A stretch of DNA of 64,000 nt from a virus (Duplodnaviria > Heunggongvirae > Uroviricota > Caudoviricetes), in the IMG/VR virus record IMGVR_UViG_2623620416_000002, positions 41,253-105,252 of that record. One strand, 5' to 3'. Below the pieces are notes generated by a model, which was given only the letters and a program-made list of their open reading frames with translations, did not search any database and was not told the origin of the DNA. Shown one piece after another: positions 2,409 through 63,130 of the stretch. Both the position numbers and the translations under genes were made by a program. Position 1 is the stretch's first letter. Each line of letters opens with the position of its first letter.

Positions 2409-3606
2409 GTTTAAACAAATTAATAATAATGAAGTTTCTGTTACATTAGACAGCAATATTCCATTAGATATGGTTGAACAGTTAACAAAAAGTCTTGAAG
2501 CTAAAGGCATGATTGAAGATAAAGCCTCTAGTTCAGTGACTTGTCGTTATTTCTATAAGCCTCAATCTGCAAATAATGTTGCAGATGAGCTTATTAAATC
2601 ACTTCAATCTTTGACTAAAGGTATTGATCCAAGCGATTTATCTAATCCTTATAGCAAAGCATCACAAGCTGCAAATAGAGAAAAGAATAGAATTAATGAT
2701 AGACGAGCGCAAACTGGCTCTCCTCCACTTAATGAATCTCAAATAGCTGCTGCAAAAGTACCTAAAGCACCAGCGGCACCTGCAGCTCCAACAACTCCAA
2801 GTACTCCCGCTTCTGAAAATTCAGGGCCACGTGTTCTTACTGGTGGACCCAATAAATTAGTAAATACTTATAGTAGTCAATCTATGAGTTACAAAAAATC
2901 TGAAGATGGCGATGATTGTGAGTGTTCACAAGAAGATTGTGAAAAATGTATAGCTAAATCTAATTATGGACCTAAAGGTTCGGGACAATATAGTGCTACA
3001 GATAATGCTCGCCGTAAAGCTAATAACACTGGAGATCAAACTGGATTTGGTCAAAATGTTAATACAAAGCAATACACATCGGCTAAGTTTGGAAATTCCA
3101 CTCCACAAACAGATCCTAAATTAAAACGCCCTCAACCTGTTAAGTCTCTTAAAGATGGAACACTAAATCCTAGTGTAGCAGAAGCAATTAAAGCTAAAGC
3201 AAATCTTAAAAAGGGGTGGGGCCAGCACCTACCATTTCCAAGTGCTGAAGAAGAAATTATGAAACTTGCTAAAAGAGCTCCTCAAAGCGGAGAAGATGCT
3301 TCAGCTAATCAATTAGCAGCATTAATGGCAGGTAAGAATTTATTAGGAAATAATGTTCATCCGGCAGTTAAAGCTATGATGGCCCCGCCACCCCCACAAC
3401 CAACCGATGAACAAATGTTTGGTCATTTAGTTGTTTCTGAGGAAATGGCTAAAGCTAAAGAAAATGAATGGTCTAGTCAACTTAATAACTTCTTTGCAGA
3501 AGCAAGTAAACCTATTAGTCAACGATTTTCTTCTGAAGAAGAAGAACTTGCTTATTGGGCTAGCATTAAAGTTGAAGATCGTGATGATGGCAAATCAGGG
3601 TACTAA
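2395..3606 (+). CDS. hypothetical protein, low-complexity (P/A/S/N-rich) with Cys-rich central patch
   Basis: 403-aa ORF overlapping the previous stop; APAAPAAPTTPSTP linker; DCECSQEDCEKC motif. Confidence 0.5.
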   Translation: MSKIKFKQINNNEVSVTLDSNIPLDMVEQLTKSLEAKGMIEDKASSSVTCRYFYKPQSANNVADELIKSLQSLTKGIDPSDLSNPYSKASQAANREKNRINDRRAQTGSPPLNESQIAAAKVPKAPAAPAAPTTPSTPASENSGPRVLTGGPNKLVNTYSSQSMSYKKSEDGDDCECSQEDCEKCIAKSNYGPKGSGQYSATDNARRKANNTGDQTGFGQNVNTKQYTSAKFGNSTPQTDPKLKRPQPVKSLKDGTLNPSVAEAIKAKANLKKGWGQHLPFPSAEEEIMKLAKRAPQSGEDASANQLAALMAGKNLLGNNVHPAVKAMMAPPPPQPTDEQMFGHLVVSEEMAKAKENEWSSQLNNFFAEASKPISQRFSSEEEELAYWASIKVEDRDDGKSGY

Positions 3607-4462: not shown

Positions 4463-5424
4463 TGGCTTTACATAAGAATCTAAGAGGCTTAGACCTTCAT
4501 GCACCATCAAATGAGCTTGTTGAGAATAACACAGGTTCTACACTTACTAAACTTAAAGTTGTTCGCTTAAATGGCATGGGTACAGTGTATCCACAAGTTG
4601 AGTTATCGGCCCCAGAATCTTTTTCTAATTTTGGTATTGTAGCGTTCGATATTGCTCCAGGAAAAATTGGATATGTGACTTGTTTTGGTTTTCTATTTGA
4701 AATAGATACTTCTGCATGGACTGTTGGTACAGAGCTTTATTCAGATGCTTCTGGTAATTTAACTACAATCGCTCTTGGTGGTATAGTTGCCACTGTTATT
4801 AGGCAAGACGCTAATTTTGGTGTGTTATATGTTACTTCTAATGCAAATAGTGATGCATTATTGACATCTTGGCGCTTAGATGGTAATAATGGCTTAAATG
4901 ATGCTGTTAATTTTCTTGGTACAGTTGATTTTCATGATTTGCGTATTCGCACTAATAACCTATTTAGAGCAGTAATTGATAAGAATGGTCGCTTTGGATT
5001 AGGTCCAGATATTGTAGCGCCTGCAAATCATTTTCATCAAAAATCTCATACAGGTTTTAGTGGATCTGGACTTCGTCAAGAGACATATTCATTGTCTACA
5101 AATAGTACGGCTAATGAAGTCGCCTTCACAGTTCCTATTGATCAGAACTCAACTGCAAAAATTGAGTTTCACGCTGTAGCTAGGGTTTCAGATGGCTCTG
5201 CTAGAGCAGCTTTTAAGCGAATAGGTCTTTTTTATAGAGAATCAAGTAATGTTCAGATTCAGCGTTCTTGGCAAACAGAATTTACAGAAAAATCAACTCC
5301 AGGTTTCGATGTTAGTTATAGTATGGGTGTTAATGAGGTTACAATGTTTGTAAAGTCATCTACAGTTACTGGAACTTATTGGACTGGGCATGTTAAGATA
5401 GAAGCAGTAAAGACGGATATATAA
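4462..5424 (+). CDS. hypothetical structural protein (320 aa)
   Basis: Long ORF in the structural block; starts ATGGCT like its neighbours. Confidence 0.5.
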   Translation: MALHKNLRGLDLHAPSNELVENNTGSTLTKLKVVRLNGMGTVYPQVELSAPESFSNFGIVAFDIAPGKIGYVTCFGFLFEIDTSAWTVGTELYSDASGNLTTIALGGIVATVIRQDANFGVLYVTSNANSDALLTSWRLDGNNGLNDAVNFLGTVDFHDLRIRTNNLFRAVIDKNGRFGLGPDIVAPANHFHQKSHTGFSGSGLRQETYSLSTNSTANEVAFTVPIDQNSTAKIEFHAVARVSDGSARAAFKRIGLFYRESSNVQIQRSWQTEFTEKSTPGFDVSYSMGVNEVTMFVKSSTVTGTYWTGHVKIEAVKTDI

Positions 5425-5433
5425 GGAGCTATA

Positions 5434-7251
5434 ATGGCTAATATTATTGGTAGATTAACAAATAATGAAGTGGAAATACTTCAAGTAGATGCGGCACCAG
5501 GCGCTGGTGGAGGTACATCTGCACCTATTGGAGCCATTGCAGCCTTTAATTCTGGTTCAGTTGGAACAGCTTATGTTAAAGTGAGTTCATTAGATACTGG
5601 ATGGGATCAAATCAATACATCAGGTGTGTCAGGTGGCGTTTCTTCTGGTGTTGCTGGAAGAATTCCTGTTTACTTTGCTACAGGTAATGTAGTAGATGAC
5701 GTATATGTTCAAAATTCACAAAACGTAATCCTCGCGCATACTACTCATCCTTCGCGATCTGTAGCAATCACTTATACAGTGCCAAATCCTGGCAATGCCA
5801 TTGCTACTGCTGATTTTGTTTTAACTGAAGGTAGCCAAATTATTAATGGTAATAAAACTTTTGGTAATGATATTATTATCAATGGTGCCTTAACTGTTAA
5901 CGGCACATTAACAACTATTAACTCTACAGTAACTGAAATCTCAGATCCTACAATATTACTTAATAATGGTGGTATTGCATCTTCTGGCGGTGGTTCAGGT
6001 ATTGAAATCGAAGAAGCAAGTGTTGTTACTGCCTTCATGACCGTTGCCGCAGCTAGAAATGGTTGGTCTTTTAAAGCTCCAACAAACGCTAACACTGCTA
6101 CACTTTTAACAACTTCTCTTGCAGCAAACAGAGGCTACACGTTACCAGATCTTTCTGGTACCTTTGCTCTTGGTACTGGTATTGCAGGATCTGTTGCTTA
6201 TTGGTCTGGTGCAAATCTTCTTAATGCTAATGCTAACTTTTTCTGGGATAATACAAACGGAAGATTAGGTATTGGAAATAGTGCACCTACAGTTCCACTT
6301 CATGTTACTGGCGCTGCTCGAATCACAAGTTTAGTTGGTCCTGCTCCTGTTCGCTCTGATACAAATGGTAATTTATCAAATGGAACAATATCTTTAACAG
6401 CTGCAACAGATGTTTCTGGTGTTCTTCCTATTGGAAATGGTGGTACAAACTCTGGTGTTGCGCTTAATAATGCGCGCATTATGGTTTCTTCTGGTGGCGC
6501 AATTGTTGAAGCTTCTGCTTTAACTAATGGTCAATTATTAATTGGCTCTACATCAGCTGCACCTGTAGCTGCAAACATAACTCAAGCTGGAACTCTTGGT
6601 GTAGTTATTAGTAATGGTCCAGGTTCAATTACTCTTGATACTGTTCAAGATATTAGAACTTCTGCTTCACCTACATTTGTTACTGCAACTCTATCAGGCA
6701 GAACTACTGGTTCTGTATTGTTCGTTGGTGCAGCCTCTGTTATTCAACAAGATAATGCTAACTTTTTCTGGGATGATACTAATAACCGTTTAGGTATCGG
6801 AAATGCAACTCCTGCGCGTCAACTCGATGTCACTGGATCTTCTATTTTTAGAGCTCCAATTAGATATGCTGATGCTGGTGCATCAAATGCAAATTGGGAA
6901 CTTTTCCAAGCTCAAGTAACAACTACTAATTCTACTACAACAACATTGCAATCAATAACTGTACCGACAGATTCAGTTATGTTGCTTGTGGCAAGAATTG
7001 TGGGTAGACGAACTGGTGGTTCTGCTGGTTCTGCTGGCGACTCAAGCGTTTACATTCGTACTGCTCGATATAAAAATATTGGTGGAACAGTTACAATTAA
7101 TAATTTACAATCTGATTACACTTCAGAGGATCAAAATTCTTGGAATGGAACATTAGATGTAACTGGTACCACAGCAAGGATTCGTGTAACTGGTGCTGCA
7201 AATAATAACATCACTTGGACCACTACGTACGAAATCAAAACATTAAGTTAA
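5434..7251 (+). CDS. tail-fibre-like protein (605 aa) with internal repeats
   Basis: SD AAGGAG 8 nt upstream; G/S/T/N-rich beta-type composition; two copies of the motif ANFFWD(N/D)TNxRLGIGN(S/A)xPxxxLxVTG; N-terminus homologous to the next ORF. Confidence 0.5.
   Translation: MANIIGRLTNNEVEILQVDAAPGAGGGTSAPIGAIAAFNSGSVGTAYVKVSSLDTGWDQINTSGVSGGVSSGVAGRIPVYFATGNVVDDVYVQNSQNVILAHTTHPSRSVAITYTVPNPGNAIATADFVLTEGSQIINGNKTFGNDIIINGALTVNGTLTTINSTVTEISDPTILLNNGGIASSGGGSGIEIEEASVVTAFMTVAAARNGWSFKAPTNANTATLLTTSLAANRGYTLPDLSGTFALGTGIAGSVAYWSGANLLNANANFFWDNTNGRLGIGNSAPTVPLHVTGAARITSLVGPAPVRSDTNGNLSNGTISLTAATDVSGVLPIGNGGTNSGVALNNARIMVSSGGAIVEASALTNGQLLIGSTSAAPVAANITQAGTLGVVISNGPGSITLDTVQDIRTSASPTFVTATLSGRTTGSVLFVGAASVIQQDNANFFWDDTNNRLGIGNATPARQLDVTGSSIFRAPIRYADAGASNANWELFQAQVTTTNSTTTTLQSITVPTDSVMLLVARIVGRRTGGSAGSAGDSSVYIRTARYKNIGGTVTINNLQSDYTSEDQNSWNGTLDVTGTTARIRVTGAANNNITWTTTYEIKTLS
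6232..6317 (+). repeat. internal fibre repeat, copy 1
   Basis: gctaactttttctgggataatacaaacggaagattaggtattggaaat…; ~75% identical to copy 2. Confidence 0.5.
6758..6840 (+). repeat. internal fibre repeat, copy 2
   Basis: gctaactttttctgggatgatactaataaccgtttaggtatcggaaat…. Confidence 0.5.
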
Positions 7252-26558: not shown

Positions 26559-28049
26559 TTATTTAATATGGGCCTGAATACGAGCTCTAATATCAGAGAA
26601 ATTTTCATCAATAAGAAGTGTTCCATTGCGGAAAACCTCACGAAGCATATCGCCTTTAATAACATCATCAAGGCTTAATCCATCACGAACCATATAGCTA
26701 TCACCATCTTTAAGAACCGCAACGCGACCCTTTTGAGACTTCTTAGTTCCATCATCAGTCTTAGGATTCTTAAATATTTGCTTCTCAATACCATCGATAA
26801 CACATAGCGTTGATTTAAGAGCGTATCCAAAAGTATCACGAGTGTTGTATTGATAAGTATAAGATCCAATACCAAATACTACATTAGTTGAAGCAAAGCC
26901 TTTAGCTTCCAATCGACTCATGATCTCTTCAGCTCGTTTAAGAGTGATAGCATCGCCATAGATCAATCCAATATGAGAGTCCAATACTTTGTATCCAGTT
27001 GCACTCTCTGTTCCTCCAAAGATCTCATAGAGACATTCGATTGCACCCTTATATTCTGGTGTTCCAACTGGAGCAGAAGGATCACCGCATACGATTAGTA
27101 CAGGATCACCAGAGTCAGGGCGAATAACAACCTTATCGCCAACTGGTCCACCTTTTCTAGCTATGATCTCTTTCTTCAATGAAGGAATAACACGTGTTAT
27201 AACATCCCAGAAATCATAACCATCAGAAACAATTGATACGATTCCTGAAGGATGAACCTCTGAAAGCATTCGCTTAAGATACTTGGCATCATCGCCGTAT
27301 GCGCACTGAATTGAGTGCTCAGTAGCTGGAACAGAAGTTCCAACAAGTTCTTTCTCAACGTTTGCATTATAGTAGTATTCAGCTGCAGAGATAGCAGGGA
27401 TGGTATCAGTTCCAGCAAAGCCAGCAACTAAGTGACCCATACCGCTCAAGATAGCTGAACGAAGGCTAGACATGCCACGCATAGAGAAGTCATGACCTTG
27501 AAAGATCGTAAATGCAACTGCTTCAGGGTGAGTAGCTAATGCAAATTCATCCATCATGCGCTTATACTCAATAGCAAGAGTTGCAGATGTAGATGGTTGC
27601 CACAACTCACACGAAGCCAAAGACTCAATGAAGTTTGTTAACCAGAAGAAGCGTGGATCTGTGTTTTGAATGGTAAGGGTAGGAACGCGAGTTGGAACAA
27701 TAGTTCCTTCAGGAAGAGCTTTGATTGATAAAGGTAAGTAGCCAAGATCATGAAGATCTTCTAAGTGTTTTGTCTCAGGATTTGGATCACCTAATGTAGC
27801 TTTGATCAATCGCTTATATTCAGCGATGACATCAGCTTTAGGGCGATTAAAGAAGTGCTCTTGGAATACATCCAAAAGATATTCTTTGATAAATGCTTGT
27901 GTGCCGAAGGCAACCACATTATCAACACCTTTTATTCTGCTTGTTCTTGGGGTCCACGTAGAGTAGACAACTTCGGTTCCCTCTGGATACATTGCGCGAT
28001 GGGCAATTTTATAGAAATCACAAAGGGTGGGTACGATCACTTGTTTCAT
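26559..28049 (-). CDS. nadV: nicotinamide phosphoribosyltransferase (NAMPT/NadV) homologue; alternatively a Namat-type NAD+ reconstitution enzyme
   Basis: 496 aa; N-terminus VPTLCDFYKIAHRAMYP (NAMPT LNTDSYKVTHY block) and NAPRTase-family length and composition. Confidence 0.75.
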   Translation of the reverse strand: MKQVIVPTLCDFYKIAHRAMYPEGTEVVYSTWTPRTSRIKGVDNVVAFGTQAFIKEYLLDVFQEHFFNRPKADVIAEYKRLIKATLGDPNPETKHLEDLHDLGYLPLSIKALPEGTIVPTRVPTLTIQNTDPRFFWLTNFIESLASCELWQPSTSATLAIEYKRMMDEFALATHPEAVAFTIFQGHDFSMRGMSSLRSAILSGMGHLVAGFAGTDTIPAISAAEYYYNANVEKELVGTSVPATEHSIQCAYGDDAKYLKRMLSEVHPSGIVSIVSDGYDFWDVITRVIPSLKKEIIARKGGPVGDKVVIRPDSGDPVLIVCGDPSAPVGTPEYKGAIECLYEIFGGTESATGYKVLDSHIGLIYGDAITLKRAEEIMSRLEAKGFASTNVVFGIGSYTYQYNTRDTFGYALKSTLCVIDGIEKQIFKNPKTDDGTKKSQKGRVAVLKDGDSYMVRDGLSLDDVIKGDMLREVFRNGTLLIDENFSDIRARIQAHIK

Positions 28050-28116
28050 AGCATAATCTCCTATGCATGTTTATGTTGCGCCCTAATATCCAAAGAGGGC
28101 GTTGTTTATATTATAC

Positions 28117-28398
28117 TTAATCTTTTCGTAAGTTCTTGGCTTCTGTTGTAATATAGTTAACAGTAACGTTAGGGCAAGTTACATCATACAGAGTTACTGT
28201 ATCGTTATTATAGTCCATATCTAAATACTGAGTCGCAACTCCACTACAGCCCTTATAAAAGCCAGTTTTTACATGATAAATTTGTCCAATACTAATGCCT
28301 AGTGATTCAGCAGAATCTGAATTGCGACCAGGGATGCGATCAGAGTTACCTGTACAACTGATAAGAAAGCCTACAAATACAATAGCTATTAATCTCAC
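28117..28398 (-). CDS. small lipoprotein
   Basis: Signal peptide plus lipobox FLISC-TGNS. Confidence 0.45.
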   Translation of the reverse strand: MRLIAIVFVGFLISCTGNSDRIPGRNSDSAESLGISIGQIYHVKTGFYKGCSGVATQYLDMDYNNDTVTLYDVTCPNVTVNYITTEAKNLRKD

Positions 28399-28610
28399 TT
28401 TGCCTCCTTATAAGTGCAAACATTTTTAACCATAATTTGCCAGCATGCTTGTTTATTACTTAAAGCTTCTTTAGAACATTCATTAACAAGCTTTTCTAAA
28501 CTTTGAAGTTGCTCTTGATTGCAATAATAATTACTGCTATTTTCACGGCCGCAACCAACTAATACTAAACTTAAAAGTATGAAATATTTCATTTTGCCTC
28601 CGGATCGCAC
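28395..28610 (-). CDS. small lipoprotein, Cys-rich
   Basis: Lipobox LVGC-GRENSS. Confidence 0.4.
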   Translation of the reverse strand: MRSGGKMKYFILLSLVLVGCGRENSSNYYCNQEQLQSLEKLVNECSKEALSNKQACWQIMVKNVCTYKEAK

Positions 28611-29092
28611 ACAATCCAGTTAATTCTTTTAAAGTCTTTGAGAACTGTTTTAAGGATCAATTCGGAATCTTGCCATGGGACATTGAATAAGCCTGAGTTG
28701 AATTTATTAGAATAAACATTGATTGTTTCATGTTCATCTTTTGGATGGGCCATATAGATTTTCTTACATAGCTCCATTAAAGCCATTGTGGTATGTATTT
28801 TAATTAACTCAGGTGAATCTTTTAATTCACCATAATTGTGCGAAGTAACAATCCATCCAACCCAGTGAGCCTCAGATGTATGGAATGTGGATAAAGAAGC
28901 TCTACCGCAAGCAGAACCTCTAGATTTATTAGCATTAATGCAAAAGCTATTGTAGTCAATAAAGCTAAACGGATACTTTTCCTTAAACGGTTTAGCAATA
29001 CCAGAACCCCAAACACCCTGAGAATTACAGGCATGAATTATTACTGATTCAGCTGGAGCATCAAATAAAGATATGTTTTGATAACTTATCAC
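28589..29092 (-). CDS. macro-domain protein (ADP-ribose binding/processing)
   Basis: VIIHACNSQGVWGSGIAKPF matches the macro-domain core (IVNAANxxLxGGGGV). Confidence 0.55.
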   Translation of the reverse strand: MISYQNISLFDAPAESVIIHACNSQGVWGSGIAKPFKEKYPFSFIDYNSFCINANKSRGSACGRASLSTFHTSEAHWVGWIVTSHNYGELKDSPELIKIHTTMALMELCKKIYMAHPKDEHETINVYSNKFNSGLFNVPWQDSELILKTVLKDFKRINWIVCDPEAK

Positions 29093-29307
29093 TTAAGCTC
29101 CTTTAATATTTGTTTTAATACTTTTACTTTAGCTAAGTTTTCAATATCGTCTTCTAATTCGTCTTTACCTCTGTCATAGTTCATAAAACATTCATCTATG
29201 TAGAATTGAATAGCTTCTTTTAGAAGTTTTGTTTTATTTATTTTTGTTTGACATTGAATAGATTTGCCATTAAACTTTTTAATTGTTACTTTTACTTTTA
29301 CTACCAT
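29089..29307 (-). CDS. hypothetical small protein (72 aa)
   Basis: ORF coupled between the macro and Prs-like genes. Confidence 0.35.
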   Translation of the reverse strand: MVVKVKVTIKKFNGKSIQCQTKINKTKLLKEAIQFYIDECFMNYDRGKDELEDDIENLAKVKVLKQILKELK

Positions 29308-30107
29308 ATTTTAAAACCCTCAGGATTACGTAGTAGACTATTAGTTGTGTATACATTTTTGATGCCAGCATCATGAAGAACTTGTCTGCCTTTGCTAAAT
29401 AATCCATGGCTCACTACTAAGTTTATCTCTTTAGTCTTAAACTCTCTTAAATATTCTGCAACCTTAATGAAGGTCATTCCGCCATCGCAAATGTCATCTA
29501 CGATTAATAGATTTTCGTCACGTAAATTTAAACCTTGTGGATTTATCATTTTAATGCCAGTGATAACACCTGTTAATTGATCTCTAACTTTTTCAAAATA
29601 AATGTAAGGCATATAGCTTAGGTTTTTATATCGCTCAGCAGCACCTTTATCTGGAAAGCAAACTATGCTTGCTTTAGATACATCTAAAATATGCTCATGA
29701 AATTCAGTTACTTTAGGAAGCCCAGTGAATGCATCTTCGTATACCATAGAGGTTTTAGAGTGGGCATCAAATGTTTCAATGCGAGTGATATTTGCATTGT
29801 GCATAATCTCTTTAAATACATGTAAGGCAAATGATAACTTATTATCAAGAGCTTTATCTTGGCGGCCATAAGGTAAGTAAGGAACTCTTAGCGTGCATGT
29901 GTCTGCATTAAGAACTCTTTGAACTAGCATAGCGAGCTGAACTACATGCATCACTTCAGCTTCAGATTCAAACAGCCACAAGATTACAGGGTCATCGCCG
30001 TATGTATCATATACAACGTCTTCTAACTTCCAAACTTGAGAAGTACCATCGGGGAAAATTGTAGTCTCAAATTTAACTTCATTTCCATTAACTAAAAGTT
30101 TTACCAT
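29301..30107 (-). CDS. ribose-phosphate pyrophosphokinase (PRPP synthetase) family protein, short form (268 aa); possibly an ADP-ribose pyrophosphokinase (Adps)-type enzyme
   Basis: Prs motifs YLPYGRQDK (Prs YxRQDRK) and LLIVDDICDGGMT (PRPP-binding loop). Confidence 0.65.
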   Translation of the reverse strand: MVKLLVNGNEVKFETTIFPDGTSQVWKLEDVVYDTYGDDPVILWLFESEAEVMHVVQLAMLVQRVLNADTCTLRVPYLPYGRQDKALDNKLSFALHVFKEIMHNANITRIETFDAHSKTSMVYEDAFTGLPKVTEFHEHILDVSKASIVCFPDKGAAERYKNLSYMPYIYFEKVRDQLTGVITGIKMINPQGLNLRDENLLIVDDICDGGMTFIKVAEYLREFKTKEINLVVSHGLFSKGRQVLHDAGIKNVYTTNSLLRNPEGFKIW

Positions 30108-32963: not shown

Positions 32964-33254
32964 TTAATTTAAGATTTGCTTTTCAAAGACAAAGTCCATA
33001 TAAGCTCTATCTATTGTGTCATTGTGGTGATCCTCAGGTGGATCAAAGAACTTACGTAATTCATGCTTATATTGTCTACAAATACAACCATTTCCTCTAT
33101 TATGAATAGTTATTTCTTGTAAACCTCTATAAGCCATCATTTTCTCAAAATCAAACTCCCAGTTATTTATCATAATCATGTGTTTTATTTGTTTCAGAAA
33201 TGGAGTCCCACCGCAGTAATTCTCTGCGTTTCCTGGGTTTGCAATCCAGTACAT
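32964..33254 (-). CDS. hypothetical protein (track start inside tRNA-Ser trimmed to MYWIANPG)
   Basis: ORF. Confidence 0.35.
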   Translation of the reverse strand: MYWIANPGNAENYCGGTPFLKQIKHMIMINNWEFDFEKMMAYRGLQEITIHNRGNGCICRQYKHELRKFFDPPEDHHNDTIDRAYMDFVFEKQILN

Positions 33255-33277
33255 TAATTTTATGTTAGAGGGACAAG

Positions 33278-33365
33278 TGGAGGAAAGCAACGGACTCGAA
33301 CCGTAGACCCCGAAGAGTCCGAAGTGTTTAGCAAACACCCTCCGCTCCTAGCGGATTTACTTTCC
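33278..33365 (-). tRNA. tRNA-Ser (GCT), type II (88 nt)
   Basis: Acceptor GGAAAGT/GCTTTCC; anticodon arm GGTGT-TTGCTAA-ACACT; long variable arm; T-loop TTCGAGT. Confidence 0.55.
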
Positions 33366-33366
33366 A

Positions 33367-33436
33367 TGGTAGTTCCATGAGGAGTCGAACCTCGTTAGCC
33401 AGATTAGAAGTCCGGCGACCGTCCATCGGTGGAACT
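33367..33436 (-). tRNA. tRNA-Arg (TCT)
   Basis: Perfect acceptor AGTTCCA/TGGAACT; anticodon arm CCGGA-CTTCTAA-TCTGG; T-arm CGAGG-TTCGACT-CCTC. Confidence 0.5.
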
Positions 33437-33440
33437 GAAG

Positions 33441-33517
33441 TGGTGCTCGACCTCGGATTCGAACCGAGACTTGACCGATTTTAAGCCGGTTGCCTCTGCC
33501 AGTTGGGCTAGTCGAGC
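33441..33517 (-). tRNA. tRNA, class-I length, anticodon TAA (Leu-type anticodon), A73
   Basis: Perfect acceptor GCTCGAC/GTCGAGC; anticodon arm ACCGG-CTTAAAA-TCGGT; T-arm CTCGG-TTCGAAT-CCGAG. Confidence 0.5.
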
Positions 33518-33519
33518 AT

Positions 33520-33608
33520 TGGTGTATGTTGAAGGAGTTGAACCATTCGTCGCCCGCTCGTTTGTTTAATGACCTCTGTTTTACAGACAGATAACGAGAA
33601 CAACATAC
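33520..33608 (-). tRNA. tRNA-Tyr (GTA), type II, with degenerate T-stem
   Basis: Perfect acceptor GTATGTT/AACATAC; anticodon arm TCTGT-CTGTAAA-ACAGA; long variable region. Confidence 0.45.
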
Positions 33609-33610
33609 GT

Positions 33611-33703
33611 TGGAGGAAGGCTAGAGAATCGAACTCTCGACGTGGTCTTAGCACGTCGCGCTAGTTTTCAAGACTAGTTGCACACCATTGCGCCGAACCT
33701 TCC
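33611..33703 (-). tRNA. tRNA-Ser (TGA), type II (93 nt)
   Basis: Acceptor GGAAGGT/GCCTTCC; anticodon arm CTAGT-CTTGAAA-ACTAG; T-loop TTCGATT. Confidence 0.55.
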
Positions 33704-33728
33704 AATTTGTTTTTGATTTAATAAAGGA

Positions 33729-33742
33729 GCTAAGAGTGGGTC
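33729..33742. repeat. left arm of a perfect 14-bp inverted repeat (GCTAAGAGTGGGTC)
   Basis: Exact reverse complement of 34127–34140. Confidence 0.7.
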
Positions 33743-34126
33743 TATAAGCGGCGTTCTGTTCTTGCACTATCATTCGTCTTGTTTGTAAGTTGCCTTACAA
33801 ATCTTTGCCCATAACCCGATGACTAGGCGAGTAGCCTCATTGTCATCCTATTTACAGTTGCTGCGCGTACGCTGTCGCCCGTTTCACCCGTTATCACTAA
33901 CTATCCAGCAGCGTTTCCGGATTATCAGTCCGGTGCTTTCCTACTCTTAGCCGCTTCTGGCGCCGCAATTTGAAGTTGCCCTCAAATTACCCCATGCTGC
34001 GTTTATAACGATTCGTCTCTGTTGCCGTCGCTCACCTCGCGGTGGAAGGGAATTACCCTCTACGCTTACTCTATGCAGCCCCGACTTTCCTCACTCACCG
34101 TATTGCACGGATATGCGCGATAGTCC

Positions 34127-34140
34127 GACCCACTCTTAGC
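34127..34140. repeat. right arm of the 14-bp inverted repeat (GACCCACTCTTAGC)
   Basis: See the left arm. Confidence 0.7.
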
Positions 34141-34185
34141 GAAATTATTATACTTTCAGATCTCCTTCATTAATTTGTTTAAAGT

Positions 34186-34261
34186 TGGTGCAACCTCTCA
34201 GAATCGAACTTACTTTACCTGTGCTTCAAACAGGAGTCATGACCACATCTACGAAAGTTGC
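34186..34261 (-). tRNA. tRNA-Phe (GAA), weak T-stem
   Basis: Acceptor GCAACTT/AGGTTGC; anticodon arm CCTGT-TTGAAGC-ACAGG; T-loop TTCGATT; ACCA. Confidence 0.45.
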
Positions 34262-34593
34262 ATATCTAATTTTTCGTGTTCTTCAGCGTGACAATTAGCA
34301 CAAAGTAAAACACATTTATCTAATTCTTCTTTAAGTTTATGCCATGCCCTGGTTTCACCCTTACCACCTATGCCAAACTCTTTTTGAGCAGGATCTAGAT
34401 GATGAAATTGTAAAGCATTCATCGACTTATCGTAACCACAACGGCTACACTTACTTCCTTTATATTCAACTGCTTTTAACTTTAATCGTTTTCTAGCTAG
34501 CTGAGTGTTATTATTGTTTCTACATCTGATAGAGCAAAATTTCTCTTGCGCTCCAGTTAACTCATTACTACAATGTTTATATGTACATTTCAT
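34249..34593 (-). CDS. HNH endonuclease (third paralogue)
   Basis: CSRCGYDKSMNALQFHHLDP…CVLLCANCHAEEH. Confidence 0.6.
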   Translation of the reverse strand: MKCTYKHCSNELTGAQEKFCSIRCRNNNNTQLARKRLKLKAVEYKGSKCSRCGYDKSMNALQFHHLDPAQKEFGIGGKGETRAWHKLKEELDKCVLLCANCHAEEHEKLDMQLS

Positions 34594-41060: not shown

Positions 41061-41263
41061 AGCTCGTCCTGGAGCTGAGTTATTTGTTCTTGAGTAACAT
41101 CATCGTCACCATCGCCATTTTTTAATGTGGCATGAAGTCTTTGAAGTTGATTGTCCATTACTTTAAGTGCTTCAATATGAACATCAAATATAGTTTTTTC
41201 AACTAATGGTGTAGTGGTCGTACTAGAATAAGAACTGCCATAGCCTTGACTATCTTTACCCAT
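40997..41263 (-). CDS. hypothetical protein (88 aa)
   Basis: ORF. Confidence 0.4.
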   Translation of the reverse strand: MGKDSQGYGSSYSSTTTTPLVEKTIFDVHIEALKVMDNQLQRLHATLKNGDGDDDVTQEQITQLQDELCRLSEELGTAEIECTTNGNQ

Positions 41264-63057: not shown

Positions 63058-63130
63058 ACGAGATGGTGGGATTTGAACCCACGACCTCGCGGCGGTTAGC
63101 CGCGCGCTCTGACCACTAAGCTACATCTCT
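63058..63130 (-). tRNA. atypical tRNA-like gene: no encoded CCA, A1×G72 mismatch, GC-only anticodon stem, loop CTAACCG (anticodon AAC as folded)
   Basis: T-arm GTGGG-TTCAAAT-CCCAC; D-arm GCTT…GAGC; anticodon stem CGCGG/CCGCG; 3' trailer TTTTTT. Confidence 0.45.

Follow-up and report, generated by a model that had tools for sequence, protein, structure and literature searches.

We analysed a 64,000-nucleotide (nt) stretch of viral DNA (IMG/VR record IMGVR_UViG_2623620416_000002, positions 41,253 to 105,252), referred to here as the window, which we treat as part of the genome of an uncultured large phage. Five of its tRNA genes, all on the minus strand, surround an element that is itself free of open reading frames (ORFs): tRNA-Ser(GCT), tRNA-Leu(TAA), and tRNA-Ser(TGA) lie downstream, and tRNA-Phe and tRNA-Asn lie upstream. 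A first-pass annotation, made from the letters alone, had singled out positions 33704-34185, which is the entire spacer between tRNA-Ser and tRNA-Phe. The element proper is narrower, occupying 412 nt at 33729-34140 on the minus strand, the strand of the flanking tRNAs. From its sequence and predicted fold, we identify this element as a full-length gene for the bacterial class A RNA of ribonuclease P (RNase P), and the 14-bp inverted repeat at its ends as helix P1 of that RNA.

The first-pass annotation had described an ORF-free, GC-enriched, and hairpin-dense element bounded by a perfect 14-bp inverted repeat among five tRNA genes, and each part of this description was borne out. No ORF of at least 60 amino acids (aa) overlaps 33339-34248; the nearest, at 32964-33338 and 34249-34593, are both on the minus strand. 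Positions 33729-33742 (GCTAAGAGTGGGTC) and 34127-34140 (GACCCACTCTTAGC) are exact reverse complements, and the inverted repeat reaches 24 nt (33719-33742 and 34127-34150) at 83% complementarity. The GC content of the element is 0.507, compared to 0.373 for the window; tRNAs in the same genome have a GC content as high as that of the element. Its minimum free energy is -139.4 kcal/mol (z = -4.6), with none of 100 shuffles folding equally well, and the 14-bp repeat is the closing helix of the minimum-energy fold. The hairpins correspond to P3, P8, P9, two in an extension of P12, P16/P17, and P18.

A scan of the whole window against Rfam matched the element to RF00010, bacterial RNase P RNA class A, at 159.5 bits (E = 1.5e-49; gathering score, 100 bits). 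In the cmscan alignment, minus-strand positions 34136 to 33729 cover model positions 1-367 of 367, that is, the full length, and four further P1 pairs extend the RNA to 34140. RNase P RNA was one of several candidates that the first-pass annotation had listed for such a scan. The others, transfer-messenger RNA (tmRNA), 6S RNA, and group I introns, gave no match in this region, whether the gathering threshold or a cutoff of E ≤0.1 was applied, and ARAGORN found no tmRNA in the window. That annotation had offered two interpretations, a structured RNA with paired ends carried in a tRNA operon or a miniature inverted-repeat mobile element (MITE). The former stood, with the repeat serving as P1, and the latter did not. 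Its remark that such content would be unusual for a phage tRNA region still holds.

The features of the RNA and its surroundings are listed below. L106 is the locus with the closest relative of the window RNA, A5 is a MAFFT alignment of 42 members of the lineage, and CR denotes a conserved region.

33729..34140, minus strand: RNase P RNA gene of class A architecture, 412 nt, from the RF00010 match plus the P1 extension
34127..34140, minus strand: P1 5′ strand GCUAAGAGUGGGUC, the right-hand arm of the repeat in the first-pass annotation, with four compensatory double changes compared to L106
33729..33742, minus strand: P1 3′ strand GACCCACUCUUAGC, the left-hand arm, complement of the P1 5′ strand
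34077..34092, minus strand: CR-I GAGGAAAGUCGGGGCU, which holds the P4 5′ strand AAG(U)CGGGG with a bulged U at 34079-34087
33742..33760, minus strand: CR-V AACAGAACGCCGCUUAUAG, which holds the P4 3′ strand CGCCGCUU at 33746-33753
34067..34071, minus strand: 5′ strand of the P6 pseudoknot, GAGUA, which covaries with the L17 loop across relatives
33829..33833, minus strand: 3′ strand of the P6 pseudoknot, UACUC in the P17 loop, which pairs with GAGUA
34012..34023, minus strand: CR-II, or J11-12, AACAGAGACGAA, nearly invariant in A5
33888..34011, minus strand: P12, 124 nt and branched, with a basal stem, hairpin A, a conserved motif, and hairpin B
33872..33889, minus strand: CR-III fused directly to the P11 3′ strand, GGGUGAAACGGGCGACAG, the site of the missing P13/P14 and a signature of the lineage
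33807..33818, minus strand: L15 region with the GGU motif, CGGGUUAUGGGC, in which CGGGU is at least 90% conserved in A5
33781..33803, minus strand: P18 hairpin with a GCAA (GNRA) loop; all eight of its eight pairs covary
34141..34185, minus strand: upstream spacer, a possible promoter, with TATAAT at 34147-34152 and a preceding block AAGGAGAUCUGAAAG conserved in relatives
34186..34261, minus strand: tRNA-Phe(GAA), directly upstream of the element, CCA encoded
33611..33703, minus strand: tRNA-Ser(UGA), 25 nt downstream of the element, CCA encoded

All five conserved regions follow one another in canonical order (GAGGAAAGUC..., AACAGAGACGAA, GGGUGAAA, AAGACGAAUGAU, and ACAGAACGCCGCUUA), and their columns are invariant or nearly so in A5. 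The P4 helix, AAG(U)CGGGG/CGCCGCUU, forms seven of its eight pairs, retains the bulged U, and contains one G.G apposition. P6, in which GAGUA and UACUC join J5/7 to the P17 loop through five Watson-Crick pairs, covaries in nine relatives. This pseudoknot is a hallmark of type A RNAs, as type B RNAs are without P6. Both P9 and P18 of the window RNA are capped by GNRA loops. In bacterial RNase P, the GGU of L15 pairs with the 3′-CCA of the tRNA, and CR-II/J11-12 is, from established structural work on the enzyme, part of the core of the specificity domain that recognises the tRNA T-loop. The core for catalysis and for binding of the tRNA acceptor end and T-loop is retained, comprising P4, CR-I, CR-IV, CR-V, CR-II, CR-III, and the GGU motif.

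The helices of this RNA are maintained by compensatory change. The structure that we scored against A5 was the Rfam consensus, transferred through the cmscan alignment of the window and supplemented with the P4 and P6 pseudoknots, and was not derived from the aligned sequences. Standard pairs filled 81.8% of pair cells, compared to 36-42% when the 3′ partners were slid by one to three columns. With the same slides, the covariation score fell from 0.438 to 0.08-0.12 and the number of pairs with changes on both sides from 87 of 102 to 50-65. Shuffles matched the observed value in none of 500 trials for four of five measures and in 10 of 500 for the fifth, and RNAalifold recovered the helices unguided. 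P4, which lies outside the Rfam model, was 99.4% paired, with five of its eight pairs covarying, and P6 occurs as GAGUA/UACUC, GAGCA/UGCUC, GAGAA/UUCUC, and UGGCAC/GUGCCA. P1 is a helix of 9-19 bp in relatives, almost wholly different in sequence each time, with its complementarity kept. Between the window and L106, 11 double and two single changes keep pairing and few break it, and four of the double changes fall in the 14-bp repeat. Structural covariation of this kind is incompatible with a MITE and leaves little room for a decaying pseudogene.

As to conservation in related phages, on which the first-pass annotation had set store, the gene is syntenic in related contigs, and the covariation among the 42 members supports an RNA. 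Three loci (L041, L042, and L048) in which the neighbouring protein is 67% identical to that of the window match RF00010 at 149.5 bits over 301 nt in the syntenic place, between tRNA-Asn and tRNA-Ser(UGA); the remaining relatives in that comparison had no RNase P RNA within 10 kb. After L106, the closest relatives of the window RNA are L164, L114, L102, L094, and L159. The order tRNA-Asn-(Phe)-RNase P RNA-tRNA-Ser(UGA)-tRNA-Leu(UAA) is common to L041, L042, L048, L106, and L114 and is found in part in L164, L102, and L159.

We used the 18-mer junction left by the loss of P13/P14, GGGTGAAACGGGCGACAG, as a probe for the lineage. This probe matched 10 IMG/VR contigs and gave 27 hits in bacterial genome assemblies and 77 in metagenomes. 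About half of the hits in genomes and metagenomes were chance matches, which we removed with an nhmmer profile; 58 of the 104 loci passed as genuine carriers of an RNase P-like RNA. A tRNA lies within 600 nt in 51 of the 58 confirmed P13/P14-less loci, and the junction motif is kept in loci of 36 to 72% GC. A generic type A CR-I pattern was found in 39 IMG/VR contigs, 15 of which, 28-463 kb long, have the hit in a dense tRNA array. Thirteen of these 15 loci pass the RF00010 gathering score, at 108-277 bits, and 12 are full length; several keep P13/P14. Several phage copies fall below the cutoff, at 83-94 bits, including L055 (93.9), L057 (90.5), and L032 (86.0). The exact CR-I 22-mer of the window was absent from IMG/VR.

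Some of these loci had further features. In L032 (IMG/VR 3300009709_000001, 385 kb), the intervals 2784-3119 and 5070-5488 hold, between them, a GOLLD RNA (212 bits) and a divergent RNase P RNA (86 bits), which lie about 2 kb apart in an array of 20 tRNAs. tmRNAs accompany the RNase P RNAs in L023, L039, and L051. In L055 (IMG/VR 3300045051_000179), an array of 45 tRNAs adjoins the RNase P RNA and includes, at 1816-1889, a tRNA with anticodon CUA (an amber suppressor, labelled Pyl by ARAGORN), which hints at stop-codon recoding. Ten loci (L062, L064-L066, L068, L069, L073, L075, L083, and L086) are in assemblies of Mesorhizobium spp. and Inquilinus limosus. Their P13/P14-less RNase P-like RNAs usually sit beside clusters of 3-11 tRNAs and are presumably additional to the chromosomal rnpB. 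Lineage copies within tRNA clusters are found in the assemblies of Mesorhizobium wenxiniae WYCCWR 10195, M. temperatum SDW018, and Inquilinus limosus SA128. PHROG scans of the flanks of the ten loci gave weak phage signals only (helicase, ribonucleotide reductase, and esterase), insufficient for an assignment to prophages.

P12 is extended in the window, and about 105 nt of it are missing from L041. The extension consists of hairpin A (33965-33990, with a GCAA loop), the conserved GCUAAGAGUAGG (33940-33951), and hairpin B (33917-33933). It is common to the window, L106, L164, L114, L102, and L094, and both hairpins covary. Across these RNAs, a GCnARGAGUAGG motif separates the first hairpin, whose loop is GNRA-like, from the second.

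Two further observations concern P12. Positions 33904-33960 (minus strand) match the Rfam tRNA model at 27.1 bits, below the cutoff of 29. The corresponding fold is without a T-arm and has an acceptor-like CCAGAAG/CUGCUGG, a D-arm-like element containing AAGAGUAGG, and an anticodon arm, CCGGA-CUGAUAA-UCCGG, with the loop CUGAUAA. ARAGORN made no call for this fold in the window, and the equivalent region of L164 gave no match to the tRNA model. As the match was not reproduced in L164, we left it as a lead on which nothing was built. Separately, the conserved GGCUAAGAGUAGG in P12 almost repeats the P1 5′ strand. Over 17 nt, this stretch (33940-33956) has 82% complementarity to the 3′ end of the RNA (33724-33740), so that a pairing rivalling P1 is possible.

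In the reading that we prefer, the element quite probably encodes a catalytic RNase P subunit, of type A with a reduced specificity domain, that matures the tRNAs of the phage together with the host protein RnpA. The RNA would be transcribed on the strand of the surrounding phage tRNA cluster, fold into the standard RNase P core, and bind host RnpA, and the resulting holoenzyme would cut the 5′ leaders off the phage's own pre-tRNAs. We infer the use of host RnpA because no RnpA is recognisable in the window.

The tRNA genes themselves fit such an enzyme. ARAGORN identified 18 in the window, and the 3′-CCA is encoded in 17 of these 18, as would suit an enzyme that relies on GGU-CCA pairing. Some neighbouring tRNAs, such as tRNA-Asp and tRNA-His, are about 2 nt apart. 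Since the CCA is encoded and the gaps are so short, a 5′ cut would nearly complete the 3′ end of the preceding tRNA, and RNase P would therefore be the key maturation enzyme for the array. Possession of its own ribozyme would keep tRNA maturation fast, or free of the host RNA subunit, during infection. The phage could gain capacity, do without the host RNA subunit, or change the specificity of the enzyme, and the data favour none of these. Phage tRNAs have been proposed to stand in for host tRNAs that defence systems cleave (PMC10264068), in which case rapid maturation would be valuable.

Upstream of the gene, TATAAT at 34147-34152 ends 7 nt before the 5′ end of the RNA, as judged by eye and from the alignment. 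A simple sigma-70 scan called no promoter upstream of the RNase P RNA gene because the TATAAT is without a -35 match. Together with the conserved block that precedes it, the TATAAT points to a phage promoter, either the gene's own or an internal one, or to a signal for processing. In the equivalents of 34141-34185 in L106, L114, and L164, a conserved AAGGAGAU(C)UGAAA is followed by an A/T-rich, -10-like hexamer, which in the window is TATAAT.

Several points weigh against a catalytic phage RNA. P13 and P14 are missing, with 43 model positions aligning to 0 nt, as they also do in L041. These helices are typical of the class, although not universal, and they stabilise the specificity domain of most type A RNAs. 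Loss of P13, P14, P16, and P17 has been called "not unusual" in bacteria (PMC8172020), and we therefore regard the loss of P13/P14 as the mark of a variant and not as grounds for exclusion from class A. The G.G mismatch in P4 affects the pair that corresponds to E. coli 73-354, close to the distal end of the helix, and was seen only in the window and L106; in the other 22 of the 24 phage RNAs that we compared, pairing at this position is perfect (for L114, L094, and L159, the P4 3′ strand was read from alignment A3 and not by regular expression). As the mismatch occurs in two diverged sequences, it is no sequencing error, and given the perfect pairing in the other 22 RNAs, it may lower the activity of the window copy.

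Other points on the same side concern the protein partner and the carrier. No RnpA was found in the 64-kb window by tblastn with RnpA sequences or with a regular expression for the RNR motif, and no gene called in the 21 kb around the locus had a PF00825 label. No cultured phage carrying the gene was found among GenBank phages. A blastn search of 50,697 GenBank phage records with the locus returned only tRNA-Ser matches, in T5-like and Vibrio phages, and tblastn with the window proteins found no close cultured relative (a 605-aa protein was unmatched, and identities were ~31% for an SPFH protein and ~42% for the ligase). When 11 phage RNase P RNAs were joined into one query, eight GenBank phage records matched, all bacterial-looking or unannotated faecal contigs. 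The only named cultured phage that was hit, Microcystis phage MaAM05 (L060; MW495066.1, 111323-119478), is a probable chimera or contaminant; we set it aside because its unannotated RNase P RNA-like stretch sits among fabI, engB, mtgA, and glyS, as in a cyanobacterial chromosome. The viral status of the related IMG/VR and metagenome loci rests on the classification of their sources, their tRNA-array context, and the genes seen in them.

Some of these points could be read differently. A weakly active or inactive RNA might capture host RnpA, either starving the host RNase P as a sponge or acting as a specificity switch, in which a holoenzyme with a minimal specificity domain favours phage precursors. 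The G.G in the window and L106, the loss of P13/P14 together with a novel conserved P12 module, and the need for a host protein where no phage rnpA was found would all suit such a role. We consider it unlikely, as P4 is perfect and covaries in 22 of the 24 phage RNAs, which also keep the GGU and CR-I to CR-V, conservation that is expected of catalysis and not of protein binding alone; in addition, the mismatch lies near the distal end of P4. It is rather unlikely that the phage RNAs, instead of being host copies that add capacity, are a lineage of virus-adapted, P13/P14-less ribozymes that take over host RnpA as a phage-specific holoenzyme for packed, CCA-encoding arrays, with P12 serving as a cis module in the subgroup that has it. 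In such a system, P12 may imitate a tRNA from within the RNA or give the specificity domain a docking site, or it may work as a switch, rivalling P1 for the 3′ end of the RNA. Very unlikely, in our view, is a passenger, in which a host rnpB fragment picked up beside tRNAs drifts without function. The element is indeed GC-rich relative to the genome, has one P4 mismatch, and scores 159 bits, where copies typical of bacteria or from other phages reach 200-277. However, it has the full length and keeps a syntenic position in phages in which the neighbouring protein has diverged to 67% identity. Moreover, its stem substitutions are overwhelmingly compensatory, including those on the branch separating the window and L106, the junction motif persists at widely differing GC contents, and tRNAs of the same genome are equally GC-rich. 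The covariation largely refutes the passenger explanation.

A non-viral origin, in which the ordinary rnpB of a small-genome bacterium, organelle, or megaplasmid was misread as phage, is highly improbable. It would draw on RNase P RNA being a universal cellular gene, on the AT-rich plastid genomes that contain rnpB and tRNAs, on the lineage members in Mesorhizobium and Inquilinus assemblies, and on the bacterial housekeeping genes around the MaAM05 hit. However, the ORFs of the window are short and dense, its tRNA cluster contains an HNH gene, and it has PHROG hits to tail-fibre, NAMPT, phosphoribosyl pyrophosphate (PRPP) synthetase, ribonucleotide reductase, thymidylate synthase, DNA ligase, and HNH endonuclease genes, and neither the Rfam nor the PHROG results for the window contained an rRNA or ribosomal-protein signal. 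Pfam labels of neighbouring genes on a Logan contig identified by an exact protein match (SRR29904084_245752; 146,573 bp) are phage-typical (Endonuclease_7, Pyr_excise, HNH, Macro, and NAMPT), and ten relatives of the neighbouring SPFH protein are on IMG/VR viral contigs of 23-176 kb. The probability of a MITE, the second alternative of the first-pass annotation, is negligible. That idea arose from the perfect 14-bp terminal inverted repeat and the absence of an ORF, but at up to two mismatches the 14-mer occurs in the 64-kb window only as the two arms (0.20 expected by chance), with no third copy of the termini. There is no target-site duplication in the flanks, ...AATAAAGGA and GAAATTATT...; across the junctions, ...TAATAAAGGA / element / GAAATTATTA..., they show no direct repeat and are partly complementary instead. 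The interior is a complete RNase P RNA, and the arms covary in a way that keeps pairing and not sequence, unlike ends that bind a transposase.

Several other features of the window lie outside the RNase P RNA gene. Downstream of the tRNA cluster, at 26559-30107 (minus strand), genes for NAMPT, a Macro-domain protein, and a PRPP-synthetase-like protein lie together as an NAD+ salvage/ADP-ribose module; some phages carry such modules. The sole tRNA gene in the window without an encoded CCA, tRNA-Val(AAC) at 63058-63130 (minus strand), is far from both tRNA clusters. A 26.4-bit match to the tRNA model at 33370-33436 (minus strand) may be a tRNA gene missed by ARAGORN, and the 93-nt gap at 33518-33610, which contains a T-arm-like GGAGTTGAACC and no tRNA call, may hold an extra tRNA. 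An Rfam tRNA match of 47 bits at 21580-21650 (minus strand) is also absent from the ARAGORN list. Between tRNA-Asn and tRNA-Phe, and overlapping the tRNA-Phe gene by 13 nt, is a 114-aa ORF (34249-34593, minus strand) that is rich in Cys/His motifs and whose product has a faint HNH Pfam label. The ORF is reminiscent of the homing-endonuclease genes that occur in the tRNA regions of T4 and T5.

RNase P RNA is among the few RNAs held to be universal cellular genes, and in the textbook view the precursors of phage tRNAs, classically those of T4, are matured by the host enzyme. We class the element as a known ribozyme family with a new carrier, phage tRNA arrays, and with a specificity domain that is reduced and remodelled. 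No report of a phage- or virus-encoded RNase P RNA was found in searchable full text, which omits most subscription journals, and this absence is therefore no proof. The main survey of huge phages annotated tRNAs and tmRNAs only and never mentions RNase P (PMC7162821), and two papers on rnpB annotation do not mention phages or plasmids. The element exposes an annotation blind spot, because huge-phage surveys ran only tRNA and tmRNA finders and because several copies fall below the Rfam cutoff. If the lineage is confirmed, the catalytic core of tRNA maturation would join the translation functions that large phages carry, so far tRNAs, tmRNA, aminoacyl-tRNA synthetases, and ribosomal proteins. 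The lineage would also be a source of naturally minimised type A ribozymes, of 277-340 nt without P13/P14, for structure-function work, and it raises the testable question of whether host RNase P is limiting, degraded, or targeted during infection.

The closest known system is the RF00010 class itself, typified by E. coli M1 RNA, the product of rnpB. The phage RNA shares with it the fold, the order of CR-I to CR-V, helices P1-P12 and P15-P18, the P4 and P6 pseudoknots, the bulged U in P4, the GGU in L15, and the GNRA loops on P9 and P18. Whereas members of that class are single chromosomal housekeeping genes, the phage RNA lies inside a phage tRNA array, has no P13/P14, contains a 124-nt P12 with a conserved branched module and the G.G in P4, and has no cognate rnpA in sight nearby. 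Bacteria of the candidate phyla radiation (CPR) also have class A-derived RNAs without P13/P14, some of them near or below Rfam thresholds, such that lowered cutoffs were needed (PMC8172020). The phage RNAs resemble these in being P13/P14-less and, for several copies, in scoring below the cutoff (83-94 bits compared to 100). However, the CPR RNAs are the sole, essential copies of their cells, while the phage RNA would be an accessory viral copy that keeps P12, P18, and the GGU.

RNase P RNAs of plastids and cyanelles offer a parallel in genomic setting, as they too are encoded by class A-type rnpB genes among tRNA genes in small, AT-rich genomes with no gene for the protein partner. Their protein comes from another genome, as we propose for the phage RNA. 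Organelle RNase P RNAs descend vertically from the cyanobacterial endosymbiont, whereas the phage copies form a lineage of their own across phage contigs of very different GC. Some plastid RNase P RNA copies are reported to be functionally defective (PMC4264200).

Finally, the phage RNase P RNA shares its niche in phage tRNA clusters with tmRNA, GOLLD RNA, and the theta, or hepatitis delta virus-like, ribozymes; the T4 stable RNAs species 1 and 2 are other structured RNAs in phage tRNA regions. The logic is also shared, in that the phage brings an RNA-level function in translation or tRNA maturation. Theta ribozymes are proposed to process tRNA 3′ trailers (PMC10879173). While these niche mates act in self-cleaving 3′ processing or ribosome rescue, the RNase P RNA would act in trans, as an endonuclease that removes 5′ leaders.

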